Shown: positions 43,116 to 63,014, counted from the first letter of the stretch. The stretch is DNA of 64,000 nt from a virus (IMGVR_UViG_3300017917_003339:1-64000), one strand, 5' to 3'. The notes: generated by a model not told the origin, from the letters alone. Numbers and translations: made by a program.

Positions 43116-43134
43116 AATACTTAAATTTAATTTG

Positions 43135-43207
43135 AGCACTAGACGGGCCTCGAACCCATGACCTCTCCCATACCAAGGGAGTGTTCTGCCTACTGAACTA
43201 CAAGTGC
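43135..43207 (-). tRNA. tRNA-Thr(GGT)
   Basis: CTCCC-TTGGTAT-GGGAG. Confidence 0.88.
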
Positions 43208-43213
43208 ATTTAG

Positions 43214-43287
43214 AGCCTCCGACAGGAATCGAACCTGCGACCTTCTCCTTACAAGGGAGTTGCTCTGGCCTGCTGAGCTACGGAGGC
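43214..43287 (-). tRNA. tRNA-Thr(TGT)
   Basis: CTCC-CTTGTAA-GGAG. Confidence 0.9.
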
Positions 43288-43351
43288 ATAACGGCCTATA
43301 ACGTTTGCCATTCGGTGCATTTTGTTTCTCGCAGAACACTTACTGCTTGTG

Positions 43352-43434
43352 TGAGAGTAGTAGGATTCGAACCTACTCAGGCATAGCCAACGGTTTTACA
43401 GACCGCCCCAGCTCTCCAACTCTGGCGTACTCCC
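43352..43434 (-). tRNA. tRNA-Tyr(GTA)
   Basis: GCGGT-CTGTAAA-ACCGT with long variable arm. Confidence 0.9.
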
Positions 43435-43443
43435 AATATTTAG

Positions 43444-43522
43444 TGGGCCTAGTAGGAATCGAACCTACAAGAATTAACACGATTTTACAGACCGCTGAGC
43501 TCACCACCTGCTCAATAGACCC
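43444..43522 (-). tRNA. tRNA-Tyr(GTA)
   Basis: GCGGT-CTGTAAA-ATCGT. Confidence 0.85.
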
Positions 43523-43527
43523 AAGTT

Positions 43528-43589
43528 CAGGGTGGTGTATCGGTTTCAAATTAAAAGTTTGATGATAATGATTGCTGAAACCACCCTTT
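43528..43589 (-). ncRNA. Helix+CAGCAA RNA presenting an isolated Lys(TTT) anticodon stem-loop
   Basis: AGGGTGGT-TTCAGCAA...TCAAA-CTTTTAA-TTTGA...ACCACCCT-G. Confidence 0.7.
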
Positions 43590-43591
43590 AG

Positions 43592-43663
43592 TTGGAGGAT
43601 AGGGACTCGAACCCTAAAAACGACAGTCAAAGTGTCGTATGTTGCCAATTACATCATCCTCCA
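43592..43663 (-). tRNA. tRNA-Gln(TTG)
   Basis: CGACA-CTTTGAC-TGTCG. Confidence 0.88.
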
Positions 43664-43672
43664 ATATGTTAG

Positions 43673-43754
43673 TTGGGAAAGAGGGACTCGAACCCCCATG
43701 TACTTCGCGTCTTCTGGCTCAAAACCAGAGGTGTTACCATTACACCATTTCCCA
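43673..43754 (-). tRNA. tRNA-Gln(TTG) with long variable region
   Basis: TCTGG-TTTTGAG-CCAGA; 15-nt variable region. Confidence 0.8.
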
Positions 43755-43812
43755 AAATTTCTAATTCTATGCTTGTCCTCACGCAACTCTATGAATTAGT
43801 AACAGTCTCATC
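43755..43812 (-). repeat. Conserved inter-tRNA element, copy 1
   Basis: GATGAGACTGTTA-CTAATTC-ATAG..GCATA-GAATTAG-AAATTT. Confidence 0.8.
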
Positions 43813-43817
43813 AACTG

Positions 43818-43890
43818 AGCGGAAGACGGGACTCGAACCCGCAACCCCCGACTTGGAAGGACGGTGCTCTACCAATTGAGCTACTTCCGC
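43818..43890 (-). tRNA. tRNA-Gly(TCC)
   Basis: GCGGAAG acceptor; loop CTTCCAA. Confidence 0.9.
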
Positions 43891-43952
43891 AAATTTTTAA
43901 TTCTATGCAGACACTTACAAATGGGCCCCTATGAATTAATAACAGTCTCTTC
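43891..43952 (-). repeat. Conserved inter-tRNA element, copy 2
   Basis: GAAGAGACTGTTA-TTAATTC-ATAG..GCATA-GAATTAA-AAATTT. Confidence 0.8.
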
Positions 43953-43955
43953 TCG

Positions 43956-44031
43956 TCGGGATGACTGGACTCGAACCAGCATGATGTCCTGCTCCCAAAG
44001 CAGGCGACTTAACCAATTAGTCCACATCCCG
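43956..44031 (-). tRNA. tRNA-Pro(TGG)
   Basis: CCTGC-TTTGGGA-GCAGG; C1-G72, A73. Confidence 0.9.
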
Positions 44032-44568
44032 TTTAAATTTTTCTACATATTCTAAAACCGTTTCTTCTATTAAATTTCTATACCTACTATGCCAATAAGC
44101 ATGATGTGTTGCACATAGAGGTATTAAATTCTCAGGTTTATTATTGTTTCTATCCCCATCTAAATGGTGAACATCTAACAATAATTTTTCATCACAAACA
44201 ACACATTTATGTTCGTGGTGTAAGAAACATGTTGACCTGTATGCATGTTCTTTCCAGTTTGGGTTTTTATCACCACTTCTAAAGAAAGAGTTTGCACAAG
44301 CATGAGAACATGTAATTTTTTCTCTTTTTGAACCTGATTGAGTTTCAAATTCATTCTCACAAACAGGACAAATTTTAATTATTCGTTCATATTTGAGAAA
44401 ATGTTTTTTCTTTCTATTAGGTTCAAATTTTAAACCATTTATTTCAAATAACGCATCTAACTTTTTATACCCAGCACCATTATTGCTGATATTTAACCTT
44501 TTACAAGCTTCATTTTTAGAACTACATTCTAGTATAATTTTTTCTAATTCTTCTTTTTCGATATTCAT
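44017..44568 (-). CDS. HNH homing endonuclease
   Basis: CPVC, CSHAC, CVVC..DVHHLDGDRNNNKPENLIPLCATHH; stop lies inside tRNA-Pro. Confidence 0.88.
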   Translation of the reverse strand: MNIEKEELEKIILECSSKNEACKRLNISNNGAGYKKLDALFEINGLKFEPNRKKKHFLKYERIIKICPVCENEFETQSGSKREKITCSHACANSFFRSGDKNPNWKEHAYRSTCFLHHEHKCVVCDEKLLLDVHHLDGDRNNNKPENLIPLCATHHAYWHSRYRNLIEETVLEYVEKFKRDVD

Positions 44569-44631
44569 AACTTATTTTTATTATAAATATCATCAAATGT
44601 CGAAAAAATCACTTTTGGGAAATTTTATTTT

Positions 44632-44675
44632 CTGCATCCCAAATGCAGCGGATTAGCCAACTTTCCCACTACCCG
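44632..44675 (-). pseudogene. Truncated tRNA-Pro(TGG), 5' two-thirds only
   Basis: CGGGTAG, D arm, CTGCA-TTTGGGA-TGCAG, then no T arm. Confidence 0.8.
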
Positions 44676-44684
44676 TAATATTTG

Positions 44685-44758
44685 TACCCCCGAAGGGACT
44701 CGAACCCATGACCCCCCGCTTAAAAGGCGGGTGCTCTAACCAACTGAGCTACGAAGGC
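44685..44758 (-). tRNA. tRNA-Lys(TTT)
   Basis: CCCGC-CTTTTAA-GCGGG. Confidence 0.9.
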
Positions 44759-44763
44759 ATTTG

Positions 44764-44836
44764 TTCCCCCGACGGGCCTCGAACCCGCTACCCACTGGTT
44801 AAAAGCCAGTTGCCCGTCCACATGAGCTTCGAAGGA
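44764..44836 (-). tRNA. tRNA-Lys(TTT)
   Basis: ACTGG-CTTTTAA-CCAGT. Confidence 0.88.
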
Positions 44837-44853
44837 ATTTATATTTCTATTTG

Positions 44854-44925
44854 TTCCCCCGCCCAGAGTCGAACTGGATTCCGTAGATTAAAAGTCTACT
44901 GCATCACCACCAATGCTTCGAGGGA
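44854..44925 (-). tRNA. tRNA-Lys(TTT)
   Basis: GTAGA-CTTTTAA-TCTAC. Confidence 0.85.
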
Positions 44926-45009
44926 ATATGTATCTTGCCCCTCAAAACATTGAGGGAATTACTGTTTACTCTTTATCTTCTTTATTGTTTTCATTGTTTT
45001 TATTTTATT

Positions 45010-45087
45010 TGGCCTCCCAGAAGGATTCGAACCTTCCATCCATAAGCCCCCAATGGGCTGCGCTTTTCCTACTAAGCTATGGGACGC
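45010..45087 (-). ncRNA. Atypical tRNA-like gene (loop CATTGGG; Gln/Pro-like)
   Basis: D and T arms intact, CCA encoded; non-canonical anticodon loop and acceptor top. Confidence 0.55.
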
Positions 45088-45101
45088 ATATTTTATTTTT
45101 G

Positions 45102-45196
45102 TCTGGTAAACAGGATTCGAACCTGTGGTAGACACTACCTTTGTGCCCACATCGGATTCCAAGTCCGACCGCTTAAACCATCTCGCGCATTACCAG
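45102..45196 (-). tRNA. tRNA-Pro(TGG) with long (class II-like) variable arm
   Basis: CTGGTAA/TTACCAG, A73; TCGGA-CTTGGAA-TCCGA; 25-nt variable arm. Confidence 0.75.
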
Positions 45197-45210
45197 TTAT
45201 TTTGTTGCAT

Positions 45211-45246
45211 AAAAAAACCCAGTTTAGATTTTACTCTGAACTGGGT
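45211..45246 (-). terminator. Attenuator terminator A
   Basis: ACCCAGTTCAGA-GTAAAA-TCTAAACTGGGT-TTTTTT just 5' of first tRNA. Confidence 0.88.
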
Positions 45247-45271
45247 CTATAATTTGTACTTGCGTACTTTA

Positions 45272-45373
45272 TTATATTGTTGTCAAGTCTGAAAACATGA
45301 CATACCCAGTCGACCTGAACGGTTTCCCGCCCTTAGGTTGATATTGCGTTTGATATGTTTTAGTTGTTTTCAT
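45272..45373 (-). CDS. Leader peptide A (33 aa) MKTTKTYQTQYQPKGGKPFRSTGYVMFSDLTTI
   Basis: Manual translation; codons 2-18 encode only K,T,Y,Q,P,G; contains antiterminator GACTGGGT. Confidence 0.85.
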   Translation of the reverse strand: MKTTKTYQTQYQPKGGKPFRSTGYVMFSDLTTI

Positions 45374-45390
45374 AACTTTGTTTTTTGTTT

Positions 45391-45481
45391 TGTTTATAAA
45401 TATGTTGTTTTTTAAAAAAATTCTGTTTTTGTTTATTAATTTTTACAATGCAAAGATACTAACTATTATAATACAAGTCAA
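45391..45481 (-). promoter_or_regulatory. Dual promoter of leader A: host-type TTGAC..TATCTTTG and phage ACATATTTATAAAC motif
   Basis: TATCTTTG at 45451-45458, TATTTATA at 45395-45402; homologous to 61925-62015. Confidence 0.7.
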
Positions 45482-45515
45482 GTTTTTTTGTAAAAAAATT
45501 TAAAATATTTTATAA

Positions 45516-45995
45516 CTACTTGAATTTCAGTTTAATATCCATTGAAATTTTTTCTGGCGCTGGGGTTGAACCACCGAAATATGGGTTTAATTGGTATCTT
45601 ACAAAATCCCATGATGAGGTTCTTTTTGCCGCCACAACTGATTTATTGATTCTTATCTTGTAATAATCGTCAAGAATATCAATTGCAAAATAGTGTTGTT
45701 TGTTAGGTTCCACGTGTGTTATTGCAAACACACTTCTAACGGTATTGTTGTAAATTATCCCAACTATCTCAACCATGTCTGGATATCTTGGGTTGTATCT
45801 CCAACCGATTCTAACGCTATCAATATGGTGTGACCAGCTATCTGATAACCCAATTAGTTTGTTTGAATCCTTTTGTTTTGGTATTGAATACTTGTAACCA
45901 TCTATAAAGGTAAAGACCCCACTTATGGAGTCTTTGATAGTGAACGTTGGAATCAACGTACTTCTATGTTTACCTTTATTGATAGTGTATATCAT
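45516..45995 (-). CDS. Hypothetical protein (possible beta-sandwich)
   Basis: ORF on coding strand; PYFGG motif. Confidence 0.5.
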   Translation of the reverse strand: MIYTINKGKHRSTLIPTFTIKDSISGVFTFIDGYKYSIPKQKDSNKLIGLSDSWSHHIDSVRIGWRYNPRYPDMVEIVGIIYNNTVRSVFAITHVEPNKQHYFAIDILDDYYKIRINKSVVAAKRTSSWDFVRYQLNPYFGGSTPAPEKISMDIKLKFK

Positions 45996-46168
45996 TTTCT
46001 TCTGTAAGAGTTTATCGCAAAATATGTTAGTGCTATAAAGCTGTAACCGATGTATAGACCACAAGGGATTGTTATAAATTTAGACCAAGCTTCATCTTGG
46101 AAAAGAAGACCTACAAAACCTAGTATGGCCGATGTTACTAATAAATATAAATTTACTTTCATTTATTT

Positions 46169-46609
46169 TTATTTTTTTGCTTTATTAGCGTTTCGCTTTG
46201 CGATTCTATCTCTTAGCTTTGCCGCCAACTCGTAATTTTCTTCTTTAACCGCAGTTTCCAATTGTTGTTCCAATGGGATTCTAGGTTTCTTGGTGTTTGT
46301 TTTGTTTTTTGATTCAGAAAACGGAACATCTGATATAACCGTCTTAATAATTTTACCGTGTTGTGTTTCCCAAATTCTTTTTTGGTAATACATACCACCT
46401 TCCTCATAGCTTTCCACCTTGTCTGGCTCACCCAAAGAAGAATCAAAATTCTTAAGAGCCTTAATGTGGTCAAAAATGTCTCTGTCGCTGATATCACCAT
46501 TATCGTTTAACTTATTAAAAAGTTTATCCATAAAGTTTTCAGCCTCGTTTTTTTTATTGTTTGACTTATCATTCATAAAGTCATTGAACAATGAATCGAA
46601 ATCACTCAT
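46169..46609 (-). CDS. UvrB/UvrC-motif protein
   Basis: LEQQLETAVKEENYELAAKLRDRI. Confidence 0.75.
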   Translation of the reverse strand: MSDFDSLFNDFMNDKSNNKKNEAENFMDKLFNKLNDNGDISDRDIFDHIKALKNFDSSLGEPDKVESYEEGGMYYQKRIWETQHGKIIKTVISDVPFSESKNKTNTKKPRIPLEQQLETAVKEENYELAAKLRDRIAKRNANKAKK

Positions 46610-47034
46610 TTTTTAGCAGATTTATTTGTTAGTTTCTTTTTTGTTTTAATAGTACTGTATTTTAGAATTCTATAAACATTTATCTTTGACAAATAAATGA
46701 ATAAACCGAAAAATACTGTAGCCAAAAAATACATTATTGACATTGTGTACCAATAGTTTTGTGTTAGTTGGTTTATACCGTAAACAACCCAATCGTAACC
46801 TAACGGATTTAAAAATAACCCTACCGTTACCAACATGTTGCCTACAGCTCTTTTGTTTGTTTTAAAGAAGTAGTAAGACAAGGATAACGCTAACAGCGCC
46901 AACCCATATAGAACGTACATTGTACTCCAATAATCGTTGGTCAATTGAGTCAGTTTGTATACCAAAATATCGAACCCAAAAGGGTTTAGAAAGGTCGCCA
47001 TCATCAAGCTGGCTGTCGCCATTTTCTTTCTCAT
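46606..47034 (-). CDS. Membrane protein with internal duplication
   Basis: FLNPFGFD..LTNDYWSTM and FLNPLGYD..LTQNYWYTM. Confidence 0.65.
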   Translation of the reverse strand: MRKKMATASLMMATFLNPFGFDILVYKLTQLTNDYWSTMYVLYGLALLALSLSYYFFKTNKRAVGNMLVTVGLFLNPLGYDWVVYGINQLTQNYWYTMSIMYFLATVFFGLFIYLSKINVYRILKYSTIKTKKKLTNKSAKK

Positions 47035-47151
47035 TCCTGTAACTATCACCTTCCATACATTTGTGTTTAATGACATGTCGGGTAACACATCATATTGTTA
47101 CCCAACATCTTATTTTATTATAAATATACTGAAATATTTATTTTTGTCAAC

Positions 47152-47973
47152 TTATGAGTTTAACAAAATTTCTTTCATTTCAGTCACTAACTTTCTATGA
47201 CCCTCACCGTACTGTGTCCAAGCCAACCCCATTTGTTTTAGGTCATAGTGTTTCAATACTGTACTGTAGTCTTCAACACCCTCTGGTCTACCGATGATAT
47301 AGATACTGTCAGCTAATTCAGCCGCAAGTCTAATATCGTGTGTTGAGAACATAATGGTGTTAGACTCATGTGCAGCACCAATTCTTTCAAAGGATTGTTT
47401 AACCTTTTCAATGTTACCAACATCCAAACCAGAGAATGGTTCATCAAGAATCATAAAGTGTTTGTTGGTAAGCATTTGCTCAATAATCGCTGTGCGCTGT
47501 CTTTGACCACCCGACAATTCACAAGGGTATTTGTCTTTGTGTTCTAACAACCCCCATTCAGTTAAGTAATCCGTGATGATTGTGTCCTTTTCAGCTTTTG
47601 ATAAGTTTGATTTACGCATAGCGTATTGACAAATCTGAGTCACGGTCTTGTGTCTGAAAAGCGTGTATTTTTGGTCCACAAAACCTACATCACCCTCATC
47701 AAGTTGTTTGGCATCATTCACATCGTCTGTGTTCATGTTGGCCAAAAGGATTTGGCCAGATATTGGTTTTAACAACCCAGTTAACACTTTAAACAATGTT
47801 GATTTACCACGTCCAGAACGACCTAATACTGCAATCACTTGACCAGTTGAGTCGATGTCTTTTCTGATAACATTCTTTTCAATAATGCTAATGTCTTTGA
47901 TGATAACCTTACCATCGTAGCCAGCGCTTACGTTATCAACGTATAATAGCGTTTCATTTGTTGTATATGGCAT
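47152..47973 (-). CDS. ABC transporter ATP-binding protein (TauB/SsuB-like)
   Basis: GRSGRGKST, LSGGQRQR, LDEPFSGLD, THD. Confidence 0.92.
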   Translation of the reverse strand: MPYTTNETLLYVDNVSAGYDGKVIIKDISIIEKNVIRKDIDSTGQVIAVLGRSGRGKSTLFKVLTGLLKPISGQILLANMNTDDVNDAKQLDEGDVGFVDQKYTLFRHKTVTQICQYAMRKSNLSKAEKDTIITDYLTEWGLLEHKDKYPCELSGGQRQRTAIIEQMLTNKHFMILDEPFSGLDVGNIEKVKQSFERIGAAHESNTIMFSTHDIRLAAELADSIYIIGRPEGVEDYSTVLKHYDLKQMGLAWTQYGEGHRKLVTEMKEILLNS

Positions 47974-47984
47974 AATTCTTAGTT

Positions 47985-48764
47985 TTAGAAGTTAGAATAT
48001 CTGAAAATTAACTTTCTTAATTTAGTCATTAAGAAGTCCAATAAAATCCCTACAAGGATAATAACAATCTGTACCGCAATAACTCTACCGTTATCACCCA
48101 CTTTGTCACCATTTTTGATAAGTACACCCAAACCACCAGCAGCGATAAGGATACTTTCAATACTTACAAGCATCATCCATACAATCGCAAGGTTTTGTCT
48201 TACCAATTCAAATACGTAGTCAAAACGACCTTTGATTACCACTTCCCAAAGCATTTCCCATCTGTTACAACCCAACGTTCTAGCATGGTCAAATTCTTCT
48301 TGTGGAATGTCTTTAATCATCTGTACAAGGCTTGTAATCAAATAAGTCGACATGAACATTACAAGCACCCATACTTGGATAGTTCTTGCGCTAGAAAGGA
48401 TAATAGTAATGTAGAACGTAATACCAGCCAGAGGTAAGAATCTAAGTTTTGAAATGAAATCAGCCCAACCCTTAAAGAATGGCAACGTACTCAAATAGGT
48501 GAAAAACAAAGAGATAATCACCGATAGTACAACAGCTTGAGCACACAATGACAAAGAACTGAACAAATGTACAATAAGACCATCGTTCCAGATTGTACTA
48601 AAACCCTTCAACACCTGTGCTGGTGTTGGAAACAAATTTGTCGTCCCAGTAGACGATAAACCCCAAAAAGCAAACAATAGACCTAACCAAATGGTCAGCA
48701 TCAATGTTTTACTAGAACCCTTTACTGACTGAAAGGGGATAAACATTTTCAATACGTTTTTCAT
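47985..48764 (-). CDS. ABC transporter permease (TauC/SsuC-like)
   Basis: FPTPAQV, ARTLG EAA-like loop, GGLG. Confidence 0.88.
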   Translation of the reverse strand: MKNVLKMFIPFQSVKGSSKTLMLTIWLGLLFAFWGLSSTGTTNLFPTPAQVLKGFSTIWNDGLIVHLFSSLSLCAQAVVLSVIISLFFTYLSTLPFFKGWADFISKLRFLPLAGITFYITIILSSARTIQVWVLVMFMSTYLITSLVQMIKDIPQEEFDHARTLGCNRWEMLWEVVIKGRFDYVFELVRQNLAIVWMMLVSIESILIAAGGLGVLIKNGDKVGDNGRVIAVQIVIILVGILLDFLMTKLRKLIFRYSNF

Positions 48765-48878
48765 TATTGTTATTTTTAAATTCTTTACAAAAATACGATT
48801 TAATTTCCATTCTACCAAATAATTAGGTAAAAAAAAAAATCCCTGATTTCTCAGGGACTTTTTAATTAAGCATAAGCA

Positions 48879-50693: not shown

Positions 50694-50946
50694 TTTGTTA
50701 TAAATTTTAATGTTATTGTTTTACGGTACAAATATACGAACTAATTTTTAATGTACCAAATTTTCTTTTGTTTGTTAACTTTTTTTTAATGTTCGCCAGT
50801 TAGAGGAACTACCCATGCGGTATAAAACTCTTCTGACTTCCTACTTACGTATATTGGCTCGGCAATCCTCATTATTATGTCCACCACTTTGCTTGGGGAT
50901 ACATGGTCAACCCACAGCTACTCGAACAGTTCTTTATTGTTTTTGA

Positions 50947-52077: not shown

Positions 52078-52078
52078 C

Positions 52079-52801: not shown

Positions 52802-53034
52802 TTTGTAATTGTTTATGTTTTACGATGCAAATATACGAAGTGTTTTTGTGTGTACCAAATTTTTAATGTTAACTGATTGTTAACAAAGACAGCGGCACGT
52901 GGGAATGACAAAACCTAAGTTCTAGAAACCGTTCACTCGTAAACGAGCTACACGCGCTTGTCTTTTTTATTAAGTTTAGAGGTAGCTTTACCGATAAAGT
53001 CAATGGACGATATCAATACATTTTACTAAACTAG

Positions 53035-53119
53035 TACAAGGAGCAGGACTCGAACCTGCGACCCTTCGGTCTGGGATTTCTCCCTCGCCAACCGCTCTAA
53101 CCAACTGAGCTACCCCCGT
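53035..53119 (-). ncRNA. tRNA-like RNA with anticodon replaced by GGGA-GAAA-TCCC tetraloop stem
   Basis: Canonical D and T arms; extended arm TTGG-CGA-GGGA-GAAA-TCCC-AGA-CCGA. Confidence 0.75.
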
Positions 53120-53120
53120 A

Positions 53121-53276
53121 TATAGGCAACAAGATTAACTTTTTAATACGCGCTCTAAACCAACTGAGCTACCACCCGAAATCTTTAATCTAGTTGGGTG
53201 GGAAGGACTCGAACCTCCGACCTCGTGCTTAAGAGGCTATTGATTTAAATTGCTGAAATAATCTTTTATACCTATT
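53121..53276 (-). ncRNA. Circularly permuted tRNA-Lys(CTT) enclosed by helix+CAGCAA module
   Basis: 3' half (53194-53237) is transcribed before 5' half (53148-53178); joining CGT|GC gives CGTGC-CTCTTAA-GCACG. Confidence 0.8.
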
Positions 53277-53278
53277 TT

Positions 53279-53458
53279 TTAAGCCTTAACTTTGGCTTTT
53301 AAAATGTCAATCTGTTTGTTGATGCGTTGTCTATCCGCATCGGTCAAAGCAACCTTTACGTCACTTGTACCCTTTTGGGTTTTTACACCACTTTTAAGTT
53401 GCGCCTCAAATTGCGCTAATGCTCTAGCTTGTCTAGATTTTTGTGCTAATGTAGCCAT
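53279..53458 (-). CDS. Small basic hypothetical protein (59 aa)
   Basis: MATLAQKSRQARALAQFEAQLKSGVKT... Confidence 0.6.
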   Translation of the reverse strand: MATLAQKSRQARALAQFEAQLKSGVKTQKGTSDVKVALTDADRQRINKQIDILKAKVKA

Positions 53459-53479
53459 ATTTAAAAATTAATAATTTAG

Positions 53480-53556
53480 TCGAGGAGAAGGGACTCGAAC
53501 CCTTCAGCAACTAGTATACACCCCGCAATGAGGCTGCCGCACCAATACCATCCCCG
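53480..53556 (-). ncRNA. tRNA-like RNA lacking D stem, with G3.U70 and A73
   Basis: CGGGGA/TCCTCG-A acceptor, AAGGG-TTCGAGT-CCCTT T arm, GGCAGC/GTTGCT helix. Confidence 0.55.
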
Positions 53557-53729
53557 TGTTTTGGTGCTAACTTTCCCACGATAGCACCGTTGCAGTCTTT
53601 TCTTTGGGAGAGGGTCCGAACTGCAAACCCAGAAGTTGTAGCACTTCCTCAGCTGTTACGCTCATTTCCTTTTAACACCTTCCATGGTATGTTAAAATTC
53701 TTTACGTAAGTGTAACCGTCTTACTGTAG

Positions 53730-53802
53730 TGGTACCGACTGGAATCGAACCAGTGACACATGGATTTTCAGTCCATTGCTCTACCAACTGAGCTACGGTA
53801 CC
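53730..53802 (-). tRNA. tRNA-Phe(GAA)
   Basis: ATGGA-CTGAAAA-TCCAT. Confidence 0.92.
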
Positions 53803-54030
53803 TTGAATGGATAAACATTTCCAAGTGTTTACCCTAGCAGTTTTTACGCACTAGCACGGCTAAAAAACTACAAAAAACCTACTCGATGTTTTATGCTTGG
53901 ACAAGGGGCTGCACGAGCAACAACCCAGTTGTTCTGGTACAACTTTAAACCCCAAACTTGAGTCGTTGGCACTGAGTCAATAGTTCCGACACAAAGATTC
54001 CTAGGTTTTTGTGTGTTTCCTATTTAGTCG

Positions 54031-54107
54031 TGGGGGAAGCTGGACTCGAACCAGCGACCTTTCGCTCTCCTAAGACAGCGAACATCTGCCAACTGAAATA
54101 TTCCCCC
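54031..54107 (-). ncRNA. tRNA-like RNA with enlarged anticodon arm
   Basis: GGGGGAA/TTCCCCC; TTCGCT-GTCTTAGGAG-AGCGAA. Confidence 0.65.
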
Positions 54108-54336
54108 GATTGCCTCGGTTAAAAACCGAGGGCTTGTTCCGTGACGCTACCGCCCCAGAGATTTACGTCTTTGTGTTTGATACCACCGCCAGTACAAAGT
54201 TTCATTATCACAAAGATAAGAGGAGGAACTTTCCTATTGGCTACTACTCTCAAACACCCTACGATGTCTAATTAAAATTACAATGCAAATATACTAAGTG
54301 TTTTTCAATCTTGCAAGTTTTTTAAAAGTTTTTTTT

Positions 54337-54963: not shown

Positions 54964-55031
54964 TTTTTTTATTATTATTATTATTAATACAATGCAAATA
55001 TACTAAGTGTTTTTTAATGTTACAAGTATTT

Positions 55032-55547
55032 TTAAAATTTTTTTCCAATCAACAGATAATAGTTTGAATTTGTTTTTCTTACAGATGTTGATTCTGATGC
55101 GTATATAGGTTCATCAGAATCAATATAGTAATCACGTACTATATCATCTAAAACCTCTTTCAAACTACAACCATCTTCTGAAAAATAAAGTTCAGCATAG
55201 TTTACGTAATCATCCTCATCGATTCCAACAGTGTCTTCAATCATCGATGTATCACAATCATCACTAGTGATGACAATAATGTTATCCGAATTATGTAAAC
55301 TTTTTCTTGAAAAAGCTTCAATTTGTTCATAAAGACCCTTACCGATAATCGCGAAATCTTCACACGCATCAACTTCTGCTGGTACGATAACCATTTGGTC
55401 ACATTCCAATAATTGTTTATGTGAATAGGTACCACCTTTGAATTCAACTATTTCCAAGTTGTAATTGGAAAGAGTTTGGCGAACTCTAGCCACCACATCT
55501 GGGTTAGCTTTGTTAGACTTCGCCAAGTACACTTTCATCTTTTTCAT
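55032..55547 (-). CDS. Hypothetical protein (TIR/NDT-like Rossmann fold possible)
   Basis: KVYLAKSN...IIGKGLYEQI. Confidence 0.45.
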   Translation of the reverse strand: MKKMKVYLAKSNKANPDVVARVRQTLSNYNLEIVEFKGGTYSHKQLLECDQMVIVPAEVDACEDFAIIGKGLYEQIEAFSRKSLHNSDNIIVITSDDCDTSMIEDTVGIDEDDYVNYAELYFSEDGCSLKEVLDDIVRDYYIDSDEPIYASESTSVRKTNSNYYLLIGKKF

Positions 55548-55553
55548 AGCAGA

Positions 55554-55889
55554 TTACTTTTCAGTTTCTTCTTCACCGAAGTATTCGTTGTAGATAGCTT
55601 CGGCTTCAGCCAATTCAACCTCTTTCAAAGCTAAATCCATACGACATTGGTGTAATTCGGAAACCCATTTAGCTGGTTCGAAATCTGGATGACCAGGTCT
55701 CAACGATGTTGTGTTTTCTGGTGCCAAGTCGGTTAACTTGTTGATAGTGCTTTTTAATTTAGATTTCTCTTTTTTCAAGTTGTTGATGAAAGAGTTTAAC
55801 TCCAATACAACATCTTCTGCCAAGTCGCTTGCTCTATTAGCCAATGTAGCTGAATTGCTAGACGAAATCATTTTTTCAAATTTACTCAT
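55554..55889 (-). CDS. Hypothetical coiled-coil protein
   Basis: ORF after host-type promoter. Confidence 0.55.
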   Translation of the reverse strand: MSKFEKMISSSNSATLANRASDLAEDVVLELNSFINNLKKEKSKLKSTINKLTDLAPENTTSLRPGHPDFEPAKWVSELHQCRMDLALKEVELAEAEAIYNEYFGEEETEK

Positions 55890-55957
55890 AAAGTTTATTT
55901 TTAATGTTATAATTAATACATTGCAAATATACGAGTAATTTTCCAATCTAGCAAATC

Positions 55958-58285
55958 TTACTTAAGAAATTTTTTGATTTTTTTGATTTCTTCAAATAAT
56001 TTGTAGTTTTTGAAGTAAGAAGGGATATCTTTGATAAACATGAATCCATTATAGGTGCTGTTATCATCCTTATGGACCACAGTGGTATATATTGAACCGT
56101 TGGTTTTGATTTTGCTTCTGTCGAAGACAATTCTAACCAATTCGTTTTCTATCTCATTGGTGTTTTCATCTTGACCTAAATTTTTAAGTGTTTTTTCAAA
56201 AGCGGTAAGAATATCGTACTTGGTTTTCTTCAGAGCTTCAATTTCATCTTCTGAACGTTCATCTTCCTCATCGTTATCATATATTTTGTCATCTATGATT
56301 TCGTAGATTTCATCTTTTATACGTTGCTCTATCGCAGCACTATCAATATTCATGTTATTATGTTCTCTTATGGTTTCCCATAATTCATCATAACTGCTCG
56401 GTAACTCAGCTTGTTCAAGCATGTCCTCCAACAAAGATTCAAAAGCACTTTCAAAGTCTGTTTTGTCTTTGGTTAAAATATCAGCATCTGAAATCAACGC
56501 ACCAATAAAATTAGGTATTGCTATTGTTATCTCTTTATAGTCTCTACTACGATAACTATATCTATTTGATTCATATGTTATTATTTTTTGAAACTTATTA
56601 CTAAGGTCTGTAAAGGTTTCTTCTTCAGCTTCATCTTGAGCATTTGAATATACTTCGTCTATGTATTCTTTGATTGAATCTTCTACCCCAAATTTTTCTA
56701 ACATAGAAGCTACAATTTCTTGTGTTGGGTTGATTCCATTTTTTCTTAACCTCGTAACCAATTCTGAATCTGTTAAGACTCTTTCAATAAAATGCTGATA
56801 TTCTTCGTCAAGACCATCTCTCCATCCTTCAAAATAACTATCATTCCATGACTGCCAATTGCTATCTGACAATTCAGACATTAAGTCTTCCAAATTATGA
56901 CCAAACTTAACATCAGAACCAAATTCAAATGTAAGTTTATCTGAATAATCGCCATATGTAACAGATACTGTATCTGGTAGCATTTCATTTAAAGTTTCAA
57001 TGGTCGCATCATCTTCTTTATACCTATGTTCAGCACTATGTTTTAACCCATCGATAATTGGTTTAATTTCAGAATAGTTTTTTACCAATTTACCAGAAGC
57101 ATGTTTTTCAAGCATTTCTAATTTATCAGCACCGTTAATAGCAATGAAATTACCAATTTGTTTTTTGTTTAGGCTACTTAAATACGCTGAAATTCTATCG
57201 TCTGGTAAAACAACCAACTCAGTATACATCATACGTAGCCTTTTTCTATTCCAATTGTCAGCGTTCAAATAAGTGTCCAATTTTCTATCACTAATTTGTG
57301 CATAACGCTTAACAAGTTTAGAATTGTTTTTGATACTAGCAAATTGCTCATCATCCAATCCAATACCAAATGAAACATACAAATTCTTTAAGTCATCTGG
57401 CAGCATCAAGAATTGGTTAGTTGAAATTGGCCTTGCAATTGTTGGGTATATATCCAAATAAGCCTTTTTATCTTCGTAGCTAAGACTTTTAAATTCGTTG
57501 TCGCTTATCCCTTTTTTGAATCTCTCATGTTGAGCTCTTTCTTCTGGTGTGAACGGTTTTGGTTTTAATACTTCTTTGATACCAGCTAACTTAGGGTTTA
57601 TTTCAAGTATTTGGTTCCAACTCATTTGATTATCACCATCATTGTTTGCTGATGTAACTATGTATTGTGGTGTTTCGTTATCCTCAGGGTTAAGGTTCTT
57701 AGGTACTTGAATAACAAAGAAGTGGTATCTATTTTCAAAACCACCACTAACACCGCCTTTTTTTGCAATAGCAGCCAATTCTGTTTCAGTTGCTTTAACA
57801 TCCTTAACAAAATAAAATGCTGGTTCGTATGGTTTAAATCTGTAAGTATAGAACATGTTTGAAGAGTCTGACCTTGCGACACACCAGCTATATGGCATAC
57901 TACCCTTGTATTTGATACAAGCTCTTGGGCTATCAGCATAAAACACTTCTATACCATTTTTGTTGTACACAGCTTCACCAGTAACTTCAATGTCATTTTG
58001 TTTCGACATAGTTGTTTTTACTGGTCTTTGACCTGACACATAATCTACAAGAGTTTCAAGGGAATTAAATGTTGGATAAGCGTCAATATCAAAACGCTTT
58101 TCAACTGGAACGTTGATATTTAAGTCTGGATTAAGAGCTTCACGGTATTTACCATCTCTAATGTGTTTGAATTTTTCAATATAACTTCTAACAATCTCTG
58201 GGTCATAATTTTGAGATATGAATTTCTGAGTTTGACTCTTGAAATCTTCGTTTAATAAATCCTTGAATATATGTGATAATTTCAT
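55958..58285 (-). CDS. Large late protein, probable virion/internal protein
   Basis: 775 aa; GATATTTATA upstream; N-terminal FKDLLNE. Confidence 0.55.
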   Translation of the reverse strand: MKLSHIFKDLLNEDFKSQTQKFISQNYDPEIVRSYIEKFKHIRDGKYREALNPDLNINVPVEKRFDIDAYPTFNSLETLVDYVSGQRPVKTTMSKQNDIEVTGEAVYNKNGIEVFYADSPRACIKYKGSMPYSWCVARSDSSNMFYTYRFKPYEPAFYFVKDVKATETELAAIAKKGGVSGGFENRYHFFVIQVPKNLNPEDNETPQYIVTSANNDGDNQMSWNQILEINPKLAGIKEVLKPKPFTPEERAQHERFKKGISDNEFKSLSYEDKKAYLDIYPTIARPISTNQFLMLPDDLKNLYVSFGIGLDDEQFASIKNNSKLVKRYAQISDRKLDTYLNADNWNRKRLRMMYTELVVLPDDRISAYLSSLNKKQIGNFIAINGADKLEMLEKHASGKLVKNYSEIKPIIDGLKHSAEHRYKEDDATIETLNEMLPDTVSVTYGDYSDKLTFEFGSDVKFGHNLEDLMSELSDSNWQSWNDSYFEGWRDGLDEEYQHFIERVLTDSELVTRLRKNGINPTQEIVASMLEKFGVEDSIKEYIDEVYSNAQDEAEEETFTDLSNKFQKIITYESNRYSYRSRDYKEITIAIPNFIGALISDADILTKDKTDFESAFESLLEDMLEQAELPSSYDELWETIREHNNMNIDSAAIEQRIKDEIYEIIDDKIYDNDEEDERSEDEIEALKKTKYDILTAFEKTLKNLGQDENTNEIENELVRIVFDRSKIKTNGSIYTTVVHKDDNSTYNGFMFIKDIPSYFKNYKLFEEIKKIKKFLK

Positions 58286-58317
58286 GCTAATTTTTTAATA
58301 TAAATATCACAAAAAAA

Positions 58318-58842
58318 CTAAACAGACATCCTTTTAACCATCTTTCTGTATATTCTATCTTCAAAATCTTTCATCAAAGAATCTGGGATTCTAATTCCTT
58401 TAGATTCGAATTCACCTATAATCTCACGTTTAAGAAATGTACCCTCAACAATTCCATCACCCCATTGGTCACACCAAAGTCCCCAGCTTTTCTTACCAAC
58501 AATCACAGCCTTGACTATGTTTGGGTGTCTGGTTACTATGGGTTTTCCACCAGAGTATTGTCCGTTATCGAATTTTCTAAATGTGTTTTTACCTTCGGAT
58601 TCATTGACATCAAATTCAACATTGACGATAGAACCGCAAAAGGTAAGAATACCTTTCCTATAAGAAGATAGAAAGAAATTGAAGATTTCATTGAAGTTGT
58701 CGGAATACTTTGATAACTTTCTATCAAGTCTGTTACCAGTTTCCTTTTTGCGTAATTCAATACGCTCTTGTTTTGTTAGGCTCCCAAGCGGTCGCCTCCT
58801 GATTGTGTTGTTTTCATATTCTTGTGTTTTTTGTTTAACCAA
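58318..58842 (-). CDS. Hypothetical protein
   Basis: ORF on coding strand. Confidence 0.5.
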   Translation of the reverse strand: MVKQKTQEYENNTIRRRPLGSLTKQERIELRKKETGNRLDRKLSKYSDNFNEIFNFFLSSYRKGILTFCGSIVNVEFDVNESEGKNTFRKFDNGQYSGGKPIVTRHPNIVKAVIVGKKSWGLWCDQWGDGIVEGTFLKREIIGEFESKGIRIPDSLMKDFEDRIYRKMVKRMSV

Positions 58843-59579
58843 TTTAATTTATTCAAGTCAATACTTGAATTAGATTTTACAATATGACCATCTGGAAAAT
58901 GTTTTATCATATCAGACATACTCAATACTGGAAAATCTTTGTCAAAGTTTGCGTTTGGATGTGACCAACCAAATTTAAACAACCAATTCAACAACGCATC
59001 AACATCATAGTCATTATAATCATCCGTAGTACAGTTACCAGTTCTTTTAGATAACTTACTACCCTTATAAAACAATAAACCAGCATGTTGAACATTTGGA
59101 AATTGTTTTTGACCATATACGTTGCAAATCATATCCCACAACTTTTGTTGTTTTGGTAAATTTGTAATGTGGTCCACACCTCTGATTATGTCTGTAATGT
59201 CATAATCATAGTCATCTAATATCGAAGCAAAATTATAGGTTGGATAACCGTTATCTCTAAGGATAACCATATCGTAATCTCCCATGTTTACGTTTAACGT
59301 ACCATCGTCTTTTTTAAACCCTATAGCTGTTGCCACTTGTTTGTATCGGTCAAGTCTGCTACTTTGCTTAAATGTTACATCATAATTTAACCCAAAGTAA
59401 TTCATTTGTTGATATATGAAATCTACATCTGAATCATTGTTCCTAGACAAATCTGTGTCATCGATTCTAAGGATAAAATTACCATCATTTGATTTACTCA
59501 ATAAATAATTGAATAAAGCAGTACGTAATGTCCCTAAATGAAATTTGCCCGTTGGTGAAGGGGCAATTCTTGTTTTCAT
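58776..59579 (-). CDS. Truncated glutamyl-tRNA synthetase-like protein (GluQ/YadB-like catalytic domain)
   Basis: TRIAPSPTG.FHLGTLRTA, LRIDDTD, PTYNFA, IRGVDH, KLSKR; no anticodon-binding domain. Confidence 0.85.
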   Translation of the reverse strand: MKTRIAPSPTGKFHLGTLRTALFNYLLSKSNDGNFILRIDDTDLSRNNDSDVDFIYQQMNYFGLNYDVTFKQSSRLDRYKQVATAIGFKKDDGTLNVNMGDYDMVILRDNGYPTYNFASILDDYDYDITDIIRGVDHITNLPKQQKLWDMICNVYGQKQFPNVQHAGLLFYKGSKLSKRTGNCTTDDYNDYDVDALLNWLFKFGWSHPNANFDKDFPVLSMSDMIKHFPDGHIVKSNSSIDLNKLNWLNKKHKNMKTTQSGGDRLGA

Positions 59580-59600
59580 AATACTATTTTTTATATTTTG

Positions 59601-59673
59601 TGGAGCTGACGGGAGTTGAACCCGCATCCTCTACCTTGCAAAGGTAGCGCTCAGCCAGTTGAGCTACAGCCCC
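59601..59673 (-). tRNA. tRNA-Ala(TGC)
   Basis: G3.U70; CTACC-TTTGCAA-GGTAG. Confidence 0.9.
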
Positions 59674-59674
59674 A

Positions 59675-59731
59675 AAATTTCTAATTCTACGCTTACAATA
59701 TGTAGTTCTATGAATTAGTAACAGTCTCATC
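59675..59731 (-). repeat. Conserved inter-tRNA element, copy 3
   Basis: GATGAGACTGTTA-CTAATTC-ATAG..GCGTA-GAATTAG-AAATTT. Confidence 0.8.
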
Positions 59732-59735
59732 TGTG

Positions 59736-59856
59736 CGGACGCAGTGGGACTCGAACCCACAGCTTTTTCGTGACAGGAAAATTAACTAATGCTGCTGGAG
59801 ATAACCTTGTCAGGTTATGACTTGTTTTTAACATGTTACCCTTACACCATACGTCC
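59736..59856 (-). ncRNA. tRNA-Asp(GTC) with ~50-nt helix+CAGCAG insertion before the anticodon stem
   Basis: GGACGTA/TGCGTCC-G73; TTTTC-CTGTCAC-GAAAA; insert ATAACCT-GACA-AGGTTAT-CTCCAGCAG. Confidence 0.8.
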
Positions 59857-59994
59857 AAAAATACCTTTACATTTCAAAGGTTAAGCAGGTTTAGTTGCGG
59901 ACTTTCCTTCCAGTCAGTGCTTCTTTTTCCAGAGATTGCCTCTATACGCACGTTATCTGACAATTTTAACACGAAGCGACCGTGTTAGCAATCG

Positions 59995-60068
59995 TGGAGA
60001 CTGCGGGAGTCGAACCCGCGACCTTCTGCGTGCAAGGCAGACGCTCTAGCCAGCTGAGCTAAGTCCCC
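59995..60068 (-). tRNA. tRNA-Ala(TGC)
   Basis: TCTGC-CTTGCAC-GCAGA; G3.U70. Confidence 0.92.
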
Positions 60069-60078
60069 AAATATTTTA

Positions 60079-60149
60079 GAAGCGCAATTGGTTTCGAACC
60101 AATGTTTCCAGCTACGCGCCAGCGTCCTAAGCCCCTAGACGATACACTT
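60079..60149 (-). ncRNA. tRNA-like RNA (Glu-type D arm) with 5-nt loop
   Basis: GTCTAG..AGGAC; CTGGC-GCGTA-GCTGG; ATTGG-TTCGAAA-CCAAT. Confidence 0.55.
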
Positions 60150-60251
60150 TAACTACTCTCAATACAACTGCCATCATATATTGAGTAGAATGGCCTTGTT
60201 ACTTCACCTTTCAGTTGGCAGACCTACTTGGTTTTTCACTCACCTTTTTTG

Positions 60252-60325
60252 CCGAGATACTGGGATTCGAACCCAGTTCGCACGCCGTGACAGGGCGGCA
60301 TCCTTCGCCAGTGGACCTTACCTCG
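60252..60325 (-). tRNA. tRNA-Asp(GTC)
   Basis: CGCC-CTGTCAC-GGCG; G73. Confidence 0.82.
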
Positions 60326-60331
60326 AATCTA

Positions 60332-60408
60332 TGGCGGTCTGTACGGGACTCGAACCCGTGACCTTCGCCGTGACAGGGCGACATTGTAACCAACTCTACT
60401 AACAGACC
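60332..60408 (-). tRNA. tRNA-Asp(GTC)
   Basis: TCGCC-CTGTCAC-GGCGA; GCCA end. Confidence 0.92.
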
Positions 60409-60414
60409 AAATAT

Positions 60415-60490
60415 TGGTAGTCTGTACGGGATTCGAACCCGTGTTTTACCCGTGAAAGGGGCACGTCCTGACCAACTAGACGAACAGACC
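60415..60490 (-). tRNA. tRNA-Glu(TTC)
   Basis: TGCCC-CTTTCAC-GGGTA; CCA encoded. Confidence 0.9.
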
Positions 60491-60524
60491 ATTTAGATTT
60501 TTGATTACTGGAATCTTAACCAGA

Positions 60525-61163
60525 TTATTTTCTCCCTTTTAACCAACCTTCGTTTAAATAAGTTTCAAGGTCTTCTTTTTTAATTTTTTTGTTAGTACCA
60601 TCCTTGGTTATCCAACATGTACCATATTGACTGTTTGTTTCACCAGTCCCAGTACCTTTTCTTTTTTCTGATATTAATTGTTTAGTTTCTTCCGAATGAC
60701 ATTTACCTTCAAAAGTATTATAATTAATTTTACCTAATTTATGTGCTTTTTTTAATGTTTCAGATGATATTTCTGTATGTTTTTTAAAAAACTCTTCATC
60801 AATTTTTAATTTGTCAGAAAACGCTTTTCCACCAGCCTTAATACATTTCTCCATATGTTCTTTATTAGCAAAACCACCTTGACCACCTTCTTTTAAATTC
60901 ATACATAAACCATCAGATATCAACTCTTTTGTTATAATTTCAATCTCTCTAAGAACTAATTTTTCTCTTGTTGGTAAAAATTCTAATATTTCTTTTGTAT
61001 GGTTTTCAACACCATATTTCCTAATACTATATCTTAATATCTTACCACTTCCCATGTAACCGTCATCTAATTTCGTAGTTGAATGCATTCCAATATACCA
61101 TCTTCCTGTTACATTACATGTTGTTTTATATATGTAATGTATATTTGCTTTTTTTCTTGCCAT
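60525..61163 (-). CDS. GIY-YIG (Seg-like) homing endonuclease with NUMOD3-like region
   Basis: YIYKTT..TGRWYIG.H..YMGSG...NLKEGG; HSEETKQLISEK. Confidence 0.88.
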   Translation of the reverse strand: MARKKANIHYIYKTTCNVTGRWYIGMHSTTKLDDGYMGSGKILRYSIRKYGVENHTKEILEFLPTREKLVLREIEIITKELISDGLCMNLKEGGQGGFANKEHMEKCIKAGGKAFSDKLKIDEEFFKKHTEISSETLKKAHKLGKINYNTFEGKCHSEETKQLISEKRKGTGTGETNSQYGTCWITKDGTNKKIKKEDLETYLNEGWLKGRK

Positions 61164-61220
61164 TTCAGTTTATCTTTAATAATAAATATCAAGATAAACT
61201 GAAAAGTACAAAAAAGTTTA

Positions 61221-61299
61221 TGGTAGCCTCGACGGGGCTCGAACCCGCATTGCACACCTTGAAAGGATGGCTTCCTAGTCCGATTTAGAAGACAAGGCC
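61221..61299 (-). tRNA. tRNA-Glu(TTC)
   Basis: loop CTTTCAA; imperfect anticodon stem; CCA encoded. Confidence 0.78.
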
Positions 61300-61356
61300 A
61301 TGTTTATCGTTTCGGTTACCCCCACGCAGTGCACTTACGCAGGGACCTACTCCTTG

Positions 61357-61520
61357 TAGGAATGAGTGGATTCGAACCACTGACCTTCTCCCTTATGATG
61401 GGAGTCGTTCTGAATGTGTTTTTTCAACCAACTTAATGGTAATTCATTAAGCACACACCCCGATTGTTGTTATTTACCATCTCCTTAAGGAGCCAATCAG
61501 ACCGCTGAACGTACATTCCT
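61357..61520 (-). ncRNA. tRNA(CAT), Ile2/Met, with ~90-nt structured insertion in the D loop
   Basis: AGGAATG/CATTCCT; GTTC..GAAC D stem split by insert; CTCCC-ATCATAA-GGGAG. Confidence 0.75.
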
Positions 61521-61522
61521 AG

Positions 61523-61595
61523 TGGTACCTCCCAGATTCGAACTGGGGACACCTGCATCTTCAGTGCAGTGCTCTACCAACTGAGCTAAGGTACC
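61523..61595 (-). tRNA. tRNA-Phe(GAA)
   Basis: CTGCA-CTGAAGA-TGCAG. Confidence 0.92.
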
Positions 61596-61605
61596 TTTTA
61601 ATTTC

Positions 61606-61640
61606 GTTGCAAAGATACAACTTATTTTTTAATCTCCAAA
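61606..61640 (-). promoter_or_regulatory. Internal host-type promoter (TTTG..TATCTTTG)
   Basis: TTTGGAGATTAAAAAATAAGTTGTATCTTTGCAAC. Confidence 0.55.
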
Positions 61641-61674
61641 TTTTCAATGAACTTTTTTTATTTTTTTTTTCTTG

Positions 61675-61745
61675 TGGAATCAACGGGAGTCGACCCCGTG
61701 TCTCTGGCTCTTCAGGCCAGCGCTAAACCCCTCAGCTATGACTCC
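61675..61745 (-). tRNA. tRNA-Phe(GAA), variant T loop
   Basis: CTGGC-CTGAAGA-GCCAG; T loop GTCGACT. Confidence 0.8.
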
Positions 61746-61758
61746 AATTTTTGTACAT

Positions 61759-61789
61759 AAAAAAAGCCTGACTTATTAGGGTCAGGCTT
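61759..61789 (-). terminator. Attenuator terminator B
   Basis: AAGCCTGAC-CCTAATAA-GTCAGGCTT-TTTTT just 5' of first tRNA-Phe. Confidence 0.88.
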
Positions 61790-61817
61790 GTTACTATGGT
61801 TGAGTTATTTCTAACTG

Positions 61818-61907
61818 TTAACTATTGGCAACACACGACCCTCCAGAAGAGCAATCCTCCTCGGCAGCAAAAAATGCAAAATCAAATATGTTAGCAAAAG
61901 TTCTCAT
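61818..61907 (-). CDS. Leader peptide B (29 aa) MRTFANIFDFAFFAAEEDCSSGGSCVANS
   Basis: Manual translation; codons 4-18 almost only F,A,D,E,I; contains antiterminator AGGGTCG. Confidence 0.85.
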   Translation of the reverse strand: MRTFANIFDFAFFAAEEDCSSGGSCVANS

Positions 61908-61924
61908 AGTAATATTTTTATGTT

Positions 61925-62015
61925 TGTTTATAAATATGTTCTTTTTTTAAAAAGTTTATTTTTTGTTTGTTTTTAAATTCTTTGCAAATATACGAACTAT
62001 TTTAATACTAGTCAA
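61925..62015 (-). promoter_or_regulatory. Dual promoter of leader B
   Basis: TTGAC at 62011-62015, TATATTTG at 61985-61992, ACATATTTATAAAC near 61926-61939. Confidence 0.7.
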
Positions 62016-62042
62016 GTTTTTTTGCAACTTTTTTAAATTATT

Positions 62043-62630: not shown

Positions 62631-62659
62631 ACTAATAAATATGTCAAAGAATTGATTTG

Positions 62660-62742: not shown

Positions 62743-62747
62743 AGGTA

Positions 62748-62836: not shown

Positions 62837-62837
62837 G

Positions 62838-62912: not shown

Positions 62913-62921
62913 ATTATATTG

Positions 62922-63004: not shown

Positions 63005-63014
63005 ATATATGATG

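Follow-up and report, generated by a model that had tools for sequence, protein, structure and literature searches.

Why do large phages carry many transfer RNA (tRNA) genes, and when are these genes expressed? This open question is posed in concrete form by a viral DNA stretch of 64,000 nucleotides (IMGVR_UViG_3300017917_003339:1-64000; the window), which is the first 64 kb of one 92,494-base contig. There are 47 tRNA genes in the whole contig and 32 in the window, every one of the latter on the minus strand. Four tRNA arrays of the contig are headed by cassettes with a common order: promoter, short open reading frame (ORF), intrinsic terminator, tRNA array. We suggest, with a probability of about 0.8 and on sequence evidence, that the cassettes are ribosome-dependent (leader-peptide) transcription attenuators that control the phage's own tRNA arrays. 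The cassettes thus suggest that the phage tRNAs may be made on demand and channel by channel. All cassette features are on the minus strand, and contig coordinates above 64,000, given below as genome coordinates, lie outside the window.

Four cassettes and the amino acids of their leaders

We scanned the contig for an ATG combined with an ACATA motif and a terminator and found exactly four cassettes, which we call A, B, C, and D. The original prediction had described two, A and B, within positions 43135 to 62015. Their layout and places stood, but the count did not, because the contig has four. The span does contain the two cassettes, but it also takes in about 14 kb of unrelated genes between the cassette of array A and array B.

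Cassette A begins with a sigma-A-type promoter at 45449-45484, recognized by pattern match (a TTGACT upstream element and a TAtcTTTGCA -7 box). Leader ORF A (45272-45373) has 33 codons and ends at TAA, the stop codon of all four leaders. Intrinsic terminator A (45211-45246) is a hairpin at 45246-45217, with an energy of -14.4 kcal/mol, followed by seven T. The first tRNA gene (45196) lies 14 bases beyond the T-run and opens array A (43134-45196), which encodes Pro, Gln, three Lys, Pro, Gly(UCC), two Gln, two Tyr, Thr(UGU), and Thr(GGU). Further downstream is a tRNA-Gly(GCC) gene at 40798-40870. It is probably a distal member of operon A, because leader A has a GGC codon; its control by attenuator A is uncertain, because promoters and ORFs intervene. 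Relatives likewise have Gly(GCC), 0.8 to 2 kb past the Thr gene.

Cassette B has its sigma-A-type promoter at 61983-62018. Leader ORF B (61818-61907) has 29 codons and the TAA, and its first seven codons form a header. Terminator B with its T-run occupies 61759-61788 (hairpin 61788-61765, -12.9 kcal/mol), and 13 bases separate the T-run from the first tRNA (61745). Array B (59600-61745) consists of two Phe genes, a tRNA(UCA), Glu, two Asp, Ala, a 121-nucleotide tRNA-like element, and Ala. Cassette C straddles the window's edge: its leader ORF is just beyond it (genome 64013-64096, with a promoter near 64160), and its terminator (63959-63989) and array (62659-63945; Cys, Val, Leu(UAA), Leu(CAA), Leu(UAG), Val, Leu(AAG)) are inside. 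Cassette D (leader at genome 85249, array 84909-81872) lies outside the window. The distance from T-run to first tRNA is 13 to 15 bases in cassettes A, B, and C. This gap is too short for a promoter, so the first tRNAs of these three arrays would be made by read-through only. In cassette D, the first tRNA is about 190 bases from the terminator, and the interval holds a small ORF.

We then compared codons 2 to 18 of each leader with the isotypes of the array that follows, calculating binomial P values against the phage's own proteome as background. All 17 codons of leader A were drawn from K, T, Y, Q, P, and G (P = 1.9e-9), exactly the set originally predicted. Leader D had 16 of 17 codons for S, H, W, I, M, N, or R (P = 4e-8), leader B had 13 of 17 for F, A, D, or E (P = 6e-6), and leader C had 9 of 17 for L, V, or C (P = 5e-4). 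The product of the four P values is about 3e-25. The leader A score was equalled by none of 24,138 proteome windows, and leaders A, B, and D were the top outliers for their own sets among the 679 small ORFs of the contig. When each leader was scored against the other three arrays, a fraction of only 0 to 0.24 was in set. Conversely, each array had every one of its isotypes present in its own leader. Past codon 18 the match vanished, and the leader tails looked random.

For leader B, the predicted set had been F, A, D, E, and I. The first four held, but Ile did not, because neither ARAGORN nor Rfam found a tRNA-Ile gene in array B. We rejected Ile as a member of this set: the R, T, N, and I near the beginning of leader B are part of the header common to leaders B, C, and D. 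The Ile(GAU) genes sit in array D. The common header carries AACATA and holds most of the out-of-set codons of B and C. After the header, leader B was 11/11 in set, with codons 8 to 18 all encoding F, D, A, or E, and leader C was 9/10. Sets A and B do not overlap, as predicted. In fact, all four isotype sets are disjoint, and their union is all 20 amino acids.

The match also extends to individual codons. The Leu codons of leader C are TTA, TTG, CTA, and CTT, one cognate each for anticodons UAA, CAA, UAG, and AAG. Leader D sets AGA and CGC against Arg tRNAs UCU and ACG, and TCG and AGT against Ser tRNAs UGA and GCU. Similarly, leader A has ACA/ACG and ACT for Thr UGU and GGU, and GGG and GGC for Gly UCC and GCC.

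One 36-base promoter pattern heads all four cassettes and occurs in 22 IMG/VR loci. These promoters have the Bacteroidota sigma-A form (a TAnnTTTG -7 box), and TAnnTTTGCA occurs at 29 sites, 27 of them on the coding strand. The dual promoter of the original prediction is borne out by a second recurring motif, (A/C)TTTTT plus 13 to 15 bases plus ATATTTATAA(T), of which there are nine in the contig, mostly just 5' of ORFs. Two of these stand before leaders A (45392-45428, limits approximate, about 45403) and B (61926-61960, limits approximate, about 61937); others are at 41302, 44590, and 47127 on the minus strand. Elements of this class may act as middle or late promoters specific to the phage.

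When shortened to 34 bases, the cassette promoter pattern had matches in 16 species genomes, 15 of which are Bacteroidota. In those 16 genomes, no leader or tRNAs followed the pattern, and we take the matches as a hint about the host and not as a host copy of the system. Relatives with the same cassettes are IMG/VR contigs of 200 to 362 kb. Because of the sigma-A-form promoters, the species-genome matches, and the large relatives, the contig is most likely a fragment of a jumbo phage with a Bacteroidota host. In blastn searches, cassettes A and B had no match among GenBank phages, and a 2.6-kb stretch near the cassettes had a sole match, LR756500.1, at 69% identity; no cultured relative emerged from these searches.

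Leaders and arrays in relatives

The original prediction expected leaders to be conserved and their composition to track array isotypes in related phages, and both expectations were upheld. A looser promoter pattern yielded 90 metagenome stretches, which together with the IMG/VR loci gave 33 unique cassettes. The four cassette types are kept among them, each followed by the matching array, and the leader ORFs are open and in frame throughout. Leader lengths vary by whole codons only, and synonymous changes were seen. In the A-type leaders of three relatives (L121, L041, and L036), the same six amino acids are present in altered order, which fits selection acting on composition rather than on peptide sequence. 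Distinct nonsynonymous variants stayed in set in 22 of 38 cases in the sensor (codons 2 to 18) versus 22 of 83 in the tail (Fisher P = 0.0012).

Two lineages sort their tRNAs differently. They provide the strongest test of the idea, because a different tRNA partition breaks the link to shared ancestry. The first is the metagenome locus L071, whose array encodes Cys, Val, four Leu, three Asp, Phe, and Ala, with Glu absent. Past the shared header, its leader has 17 codons, of which 16 encode L, A, D, C, V, or F and one encodes T; there is no E. The second is LR756500.1, a distant phage of 462 kb that has three cassettes of the same architecture and differently sorted arrays. One leader consists of T, L, Y, P, G, Q, and A (15/17 in set) and precedes Ala-Leu-Pro-Tyr-Gln-Gly-Thr-Gly. 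Another is rich in H, E, V, W, and L (10/17) before a His-Glu-Val-Trp(-Leu) array, and the third is rich in N, D, and R (10/17) before Asn, Asp, Arg, a CAU tRNA, and Arg (set N/D/R/M). A search of IMG/VR with the LR756500-type promoter pattern found no further lineage but only what seems to be this phage again; the cassettes of L028, L029, and L031 read the same as those of LR756500.

Two other features of the minus strand of LR756500.1 lie near this subject (coordinates in L024 and L025, joined and reverse-complemented). A transfer-messenger RNA (tmRNA)-like gene at about 29896-30490 follows a fourth cassette candidate, LR_4. An ORF of about 95 codons with a Ser-rich C terminus, at about 24450-24715, ends directly before two tRNA-Ser genes.

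A probable RNA switch, its proposed working, and the alternatives

The leader RNAs also contain the alternative helices of an attenuator. The AACATAT motif, which leaders A and B share as predicted, forms the core of region 1. It is at 45359-45353 in A, where it is in the 5' arm of helix 1:2, and at 61892-61886 in B. Its AACATA portion is conserved in all four cassettes and in LR756500. In folds of the full leaders, the AACATA region (codons 4 to 10) pairs with codons 20 to 28 and so sequesters region 2; the hairpins predicted near codons 13 to 22 were likewise seen in the folds of A and B. Helix 1:2 was present in most hand-picked cassettes, with z scores near zero in LR_1, LR_2, and L036_A and a shifted register in L007 and L014. 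Region 2 of A (45287-45316) consists of the antiterminator core ACTGGGT (45310-45304) and then the 3' arm of helix 1:2. The corresponding core of B is AGGGTCG (61842-61836), and its partner TGACCCT is at 61778-61784. Both cores occupy codons 22 to 24, where a segment complementary to the terminator had been anticipated.

Such complementarity between codons 20 to 25 and the 5' arm of the cassette's own terminator (region 3; regions 3 and 4 make up the terminator) was found in nearly all cassettes. The region 2/3 pairs are ACTGGGT/ACCCAGT in A, AGGGTCG/TGACCCT in B, TGGGCT/AGCCCA in C, and GTCGGGT/ACCCGAC in D. Other lineages use CGGACT/AGTCCG (L071) and ACCGGAT/ATCCGGT (LR_3). Among 11 non-redundant cassettes, pairing with the own terminator beat permuted pairings (P about 8e-5). 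Compensatory changes were also present in relatives. In L006 the same position is altered in regions 2, 3, and 4, and in L041 the whole core is replaced in both partners. Regions 2 and 3 are altered and region 4 is unchanged in L040, and the B-type cassettes L007 and L014 have lost one base in both partners.

Folding gave a similar picture. When regions 1 and 4 were omitted, the minimum-energy fold was the 2:3 antiterminator in cassettes A to D, with energies of -22.3, -18.9, -15.9, and -26.7 kcal/mol and z scores of -3.6, -1.5, -2.4, and -4.0, respectively. RNAalifold, applied to alignments cut before region 4, gave a consensus for the D and A types in which 2:3 is the outer helix, with a few double changes. 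The leader stop codon is 24 to 36 nucleotides from the terminator hairpin in 15 of 16 hand-picked cassettes, and the terminator is a canonical hairpin with a T-run. The original prediction had invoked the 1:2, 2:3, and 3:4 logic of known attenuators, and every sequence-level prediction of that logic that we tested held, which is consistent with a switch of this kind.

We infer leader translation, read-through caused by stalling, the direction of the effect, and the cause of tRNA depletion, and we suggest the following mechanism. Transcription would start from the host sigma-A-type promoter, and in A and B possibly also from the second promoter class. A ribosome would translate the leader of 25 to 35 codons. 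By default, with or without smooth translation, helix 1:2 and the terminator 3:4 would form, transcription would stop 13 to 15 bases before the first tRNA, and the array would be off. If an aminoacyl-tRNA of the array's set were scarce, the ribosome would stall in the sensor codons and cover region 1. The freed region 2 would then capture the 5' arm of the terminator before region 4 was made, and RNA polymerase would enter the array. The signal would be the slow decoding of any in-set codon, and the response would be more of those same tRNAs. With stall-triggered read-through, the speed at which its own codons are decoded would therefore exert negative feedback on each array. A channel could respond to any of three to seven amino acids, and the four channels together would span all 20.

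Three other explanations must be weighed. The one that survives best, which we still consider improbable, is that translation does matter but acts differently or in the reverse direction. Read-through would then follow from efficient translation, or ribosome occupancy would set the 5' processing, the stability, or the Rho access of the tRNA precursor. The constant stop-to-hairpin distance of 24 to 36 nucleotides suggests that the place where the ribosome stops does matter. However, a ribosome at the stop codon would be too distant to melt the hairpin, and the terminators are canonical hairpins with T-runs. In addition, region 2 can pair with the 5' arm of the terminator and is masked by region 1, which lies in the sensor codons, and this is the arrangement expected if stalling leads to read-through.

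We give still less credence to a ribosome-independent RNA switch, in which a protein, or tRNAs that bind the RNA in T-box fashion, would decide between terminator and antiterminator and the open frame would be a coincidence. Such a switch would not account for 17 successive in-frame codons from one isotype set, for indels of whole codons only alongside synonymous changes, or for an ATG in an A-rich leader. Rfam gave no T-box or other cis-regulatory match at E values up to 1. What speaks for it is that helices 1:2, 2:3, and 3:4 exist irrespective of translation and that codon triplets could in principle pair with anticodons. The least probable explanation is that each short ORF is simply a small protein-coding gene ending at its own terminator. 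The arrays would then depend on promoters elsewhere or on constitutive leakage, and the composition match would carry no regulatory meaning. Arrays B and D do contain internal promoters, as does array A near 44590, and a small hydrophobic peptide like that of leader C could reside in a membrane. Against this explanation, it is composition and not residue order that is conserved, and the leaders of L071 and LR756500 follow their different tRNA partitions. The 3' half of the ORFs is conserved in its RNA pairing and not in its protein, there is no promoter space before the first tRNA, and the four sets tile the 20 amino acids.

Several observations weigh against leader-peptide attenuation, which we nevertheless prefer. 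In the fixed window, leader C scored only 9/17, because the 6-codon header common to B, C, and D is outside its set. The antiterminator of B is the weakest of the four (z = -1.5) and partly pairs with the terminator loop. In LR_2 of LR756500, the 2:3 complementarity is weak and ranks 9 or 12, depending on the comparison set. LR_4, which stands before the tmRNA-like gene and Lys, Met, and Phe tRNAs, was excluded as ambiguous, because it matches only weakly in composition and has a stop codon that overlaps the hairpin. A stall at codons 16 to 18 fits the geometry less well, because a ribosome there would cover part of region 2. To the proposed sensor, the lack of a tRNA and the lack of an amino acid would also look alike, and extra tRNA would be useless in the latter case.

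Internal promoters are a further difficulty. A 38-base sigma-A promoter module lies before the second tRNA-Phe gene in array B (61608-61645), and a near-identical copy lies directly before a tRNA-Ile gene in array D (genome 83567-83604, minus strand). The module was not found in the fetched relatives. An element of the ATATTTATAA class is inside array A (44590). Because of the modules in B and D and the element in A, distal tRNAs may escape the attenuator or be also constitutive in this phage.

If the cassettes are attenuators, what would deplete the tRNAs? Host decay or shut-off, high late demand, a mismatch with host codon usage, and host anticodon nucleases are all conceivable causes. The nucleases, which the original prediction had named, are one of several possible triggers, and ordinary balancing of supply and demand during infection is another. 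A bolder proposal is that the four cassettes form an isoacceptor-resolved meter of decoding speed for all 20 amino acids that serves mainly as an inducible counter-defence, in which only the channel of the depleted tRNA fires and replaces that tRNA, after nuclease action or the phage's own shut-off of the host. We regard this proposal as tentative and rather doubtful.

Surrounding genes, significance, and known systems

The arrays and their surroundings hold other features, all on the minus strand. ORFs resembling homing endonucleases interrupt arrays A and B: an HNH endonuclease ORF in array A (44017-44568) and a GIY-YIG/NUMOD3 ORF in array B (60525-61163). A further HNH ORF (40872-41357) is inside or adjoins the arrays. 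In array B, the tRNA with anticodon UCA (61221-61299), called SeC by ARAGORN, is kept after tRNA-Phe in the B arrays of relatives and may be an opal suppressor. The 121-base element between the two tRNA-Ala genes (59736-59856) is an Rfam tRNA match with an insertion, and the intron mode of ARAGORN gave a doubtful Cys(ACA). At the end of array B is a gene (58776-59627) for a 283-amino-acid protein with only the catalytic domain of a Glu/Gln-tRNA synthetase (Pfam tRNA-synt_1c, 1.7e-46). It is below the cut-offs for bacterial GluRS and GluQRS, and its architecture resembles that of GluQRS, which modifies tRNA-Asp. Array B holds Glu and Asp tRNAs. A GNAT acetyltransferase gene (62043-62621) lies between array C and the cassette B promoter.

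Other unusual RNA genes are scattered elsewhere on the same strand. Behind a sigma-A promoter at 54293 is a cluster (53000-54300) with long structured spacers. It includes a tRNA-like gene with a two-base anticodon according to ARAGORN (54030-54107), a tRNA found by Rfam only (53035-53119), and a weak, sub-threshold YrlA-like match (53120-53246). The stretch 3820-4141 opens with a cassette-like promoter (4141-4109); about 190 bases without a cassette-type leader ORF come next, and then a 96-base tRNA-like gene, which has a long extra arm and was called Ser(AGA).

The cassettes open to direct test how phage tRNA arrays are regulated and what purpose they serve. The proposed sensor would read the relevant quantity, namely, the decoding speed of cognate codons. 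It would extend leader-peptide attenuation to tRNAs, with up to seven amino acids per leader and twenty across four. It would also provide a testable link between phage tRNA arrays and host tRNA depletion by defence nucleases, host shut-off, or codon mismatch. The text of a leader predicts the tRNAs of one transcription unit and so may aid the annotation of uncultured phage genomes, and the cassettes could serve as compact natural reporters of individual tRNA availability in Bacteroidota.

How do the cassettes compare with known systems? Our full-text literature search found no account of leader-peptide control of tRNA genes. Over positions 40000 to 64000, Rfam at E values up to 1 returned only tRNAs and sub-threshold noise, with no T-box and no His, Trp, Thr, Leu, or Phe leader family. 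The closest likeness in logic is to the enterobacterial attenuators. The thr leader senses Thr and Ile and the ilvGMEDA leader senses Ile, Leu, and Val; trp, his, leu, and phe are also leader-peptide attenuators. Shared features are a short leader ORF with many regulatory codons, an intrinsic terminator ahead of the first gene, the three helices 1:2, 2:3, and 3:4, and, in thr and ilvGMEDA, several amino acids per leader. However, the enterobacterial attenuators control biosynthetic enzymes and the phage cassettes precede tRNA genes. The phage leaders cover up to seven amino acids each, four paralogous leaders split all 20, and there is no sequence or Rfam relationship between the two groups.

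In Escherichia coli, the pheST attenuator with its pheM leader is a case of leader-peptide control of a translation-apparatus gene by the supply of charged tRNA. Unlike the phage cassettes, it controls a synthetase and senses a single amino acid. T-box riboswitches likewise couple tRNA status to terminator read-through before translation-related genes. However, a T-box has a conserved motif and acts without a ribosome by direct binding of one uncharged tRNA, whereas the phage signal is a run of in-frame codons. The tRNA sets of T4- and T5-type phages are thought to replace depleted or cleaved host tRNAs, and they resemble the present arrays in that phage tRNA genes supplement or replace the host pool. 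We know of no description, and found none, of demand-sensing control of those genes.

The nearest published case that we found is the trn operon of Anabaena sp. PCC 7120, a long accessory tRNA array that is normally silent and is turned on when translation is impaired (PMC8421152). Its control is at the promoter, through direct repeats and the repressor TrcR, with no mention of a leader peptide or attenuation (PMC8421152, PMC10272220). It is bacterial and relies on a repressor at the promoter, unlike the phage cassettes. The cassettes differ from known systems in the class of genes controlled (tRNAs), in the number of amino acids per leader, in the four-way division of the code, and in their phage setting.

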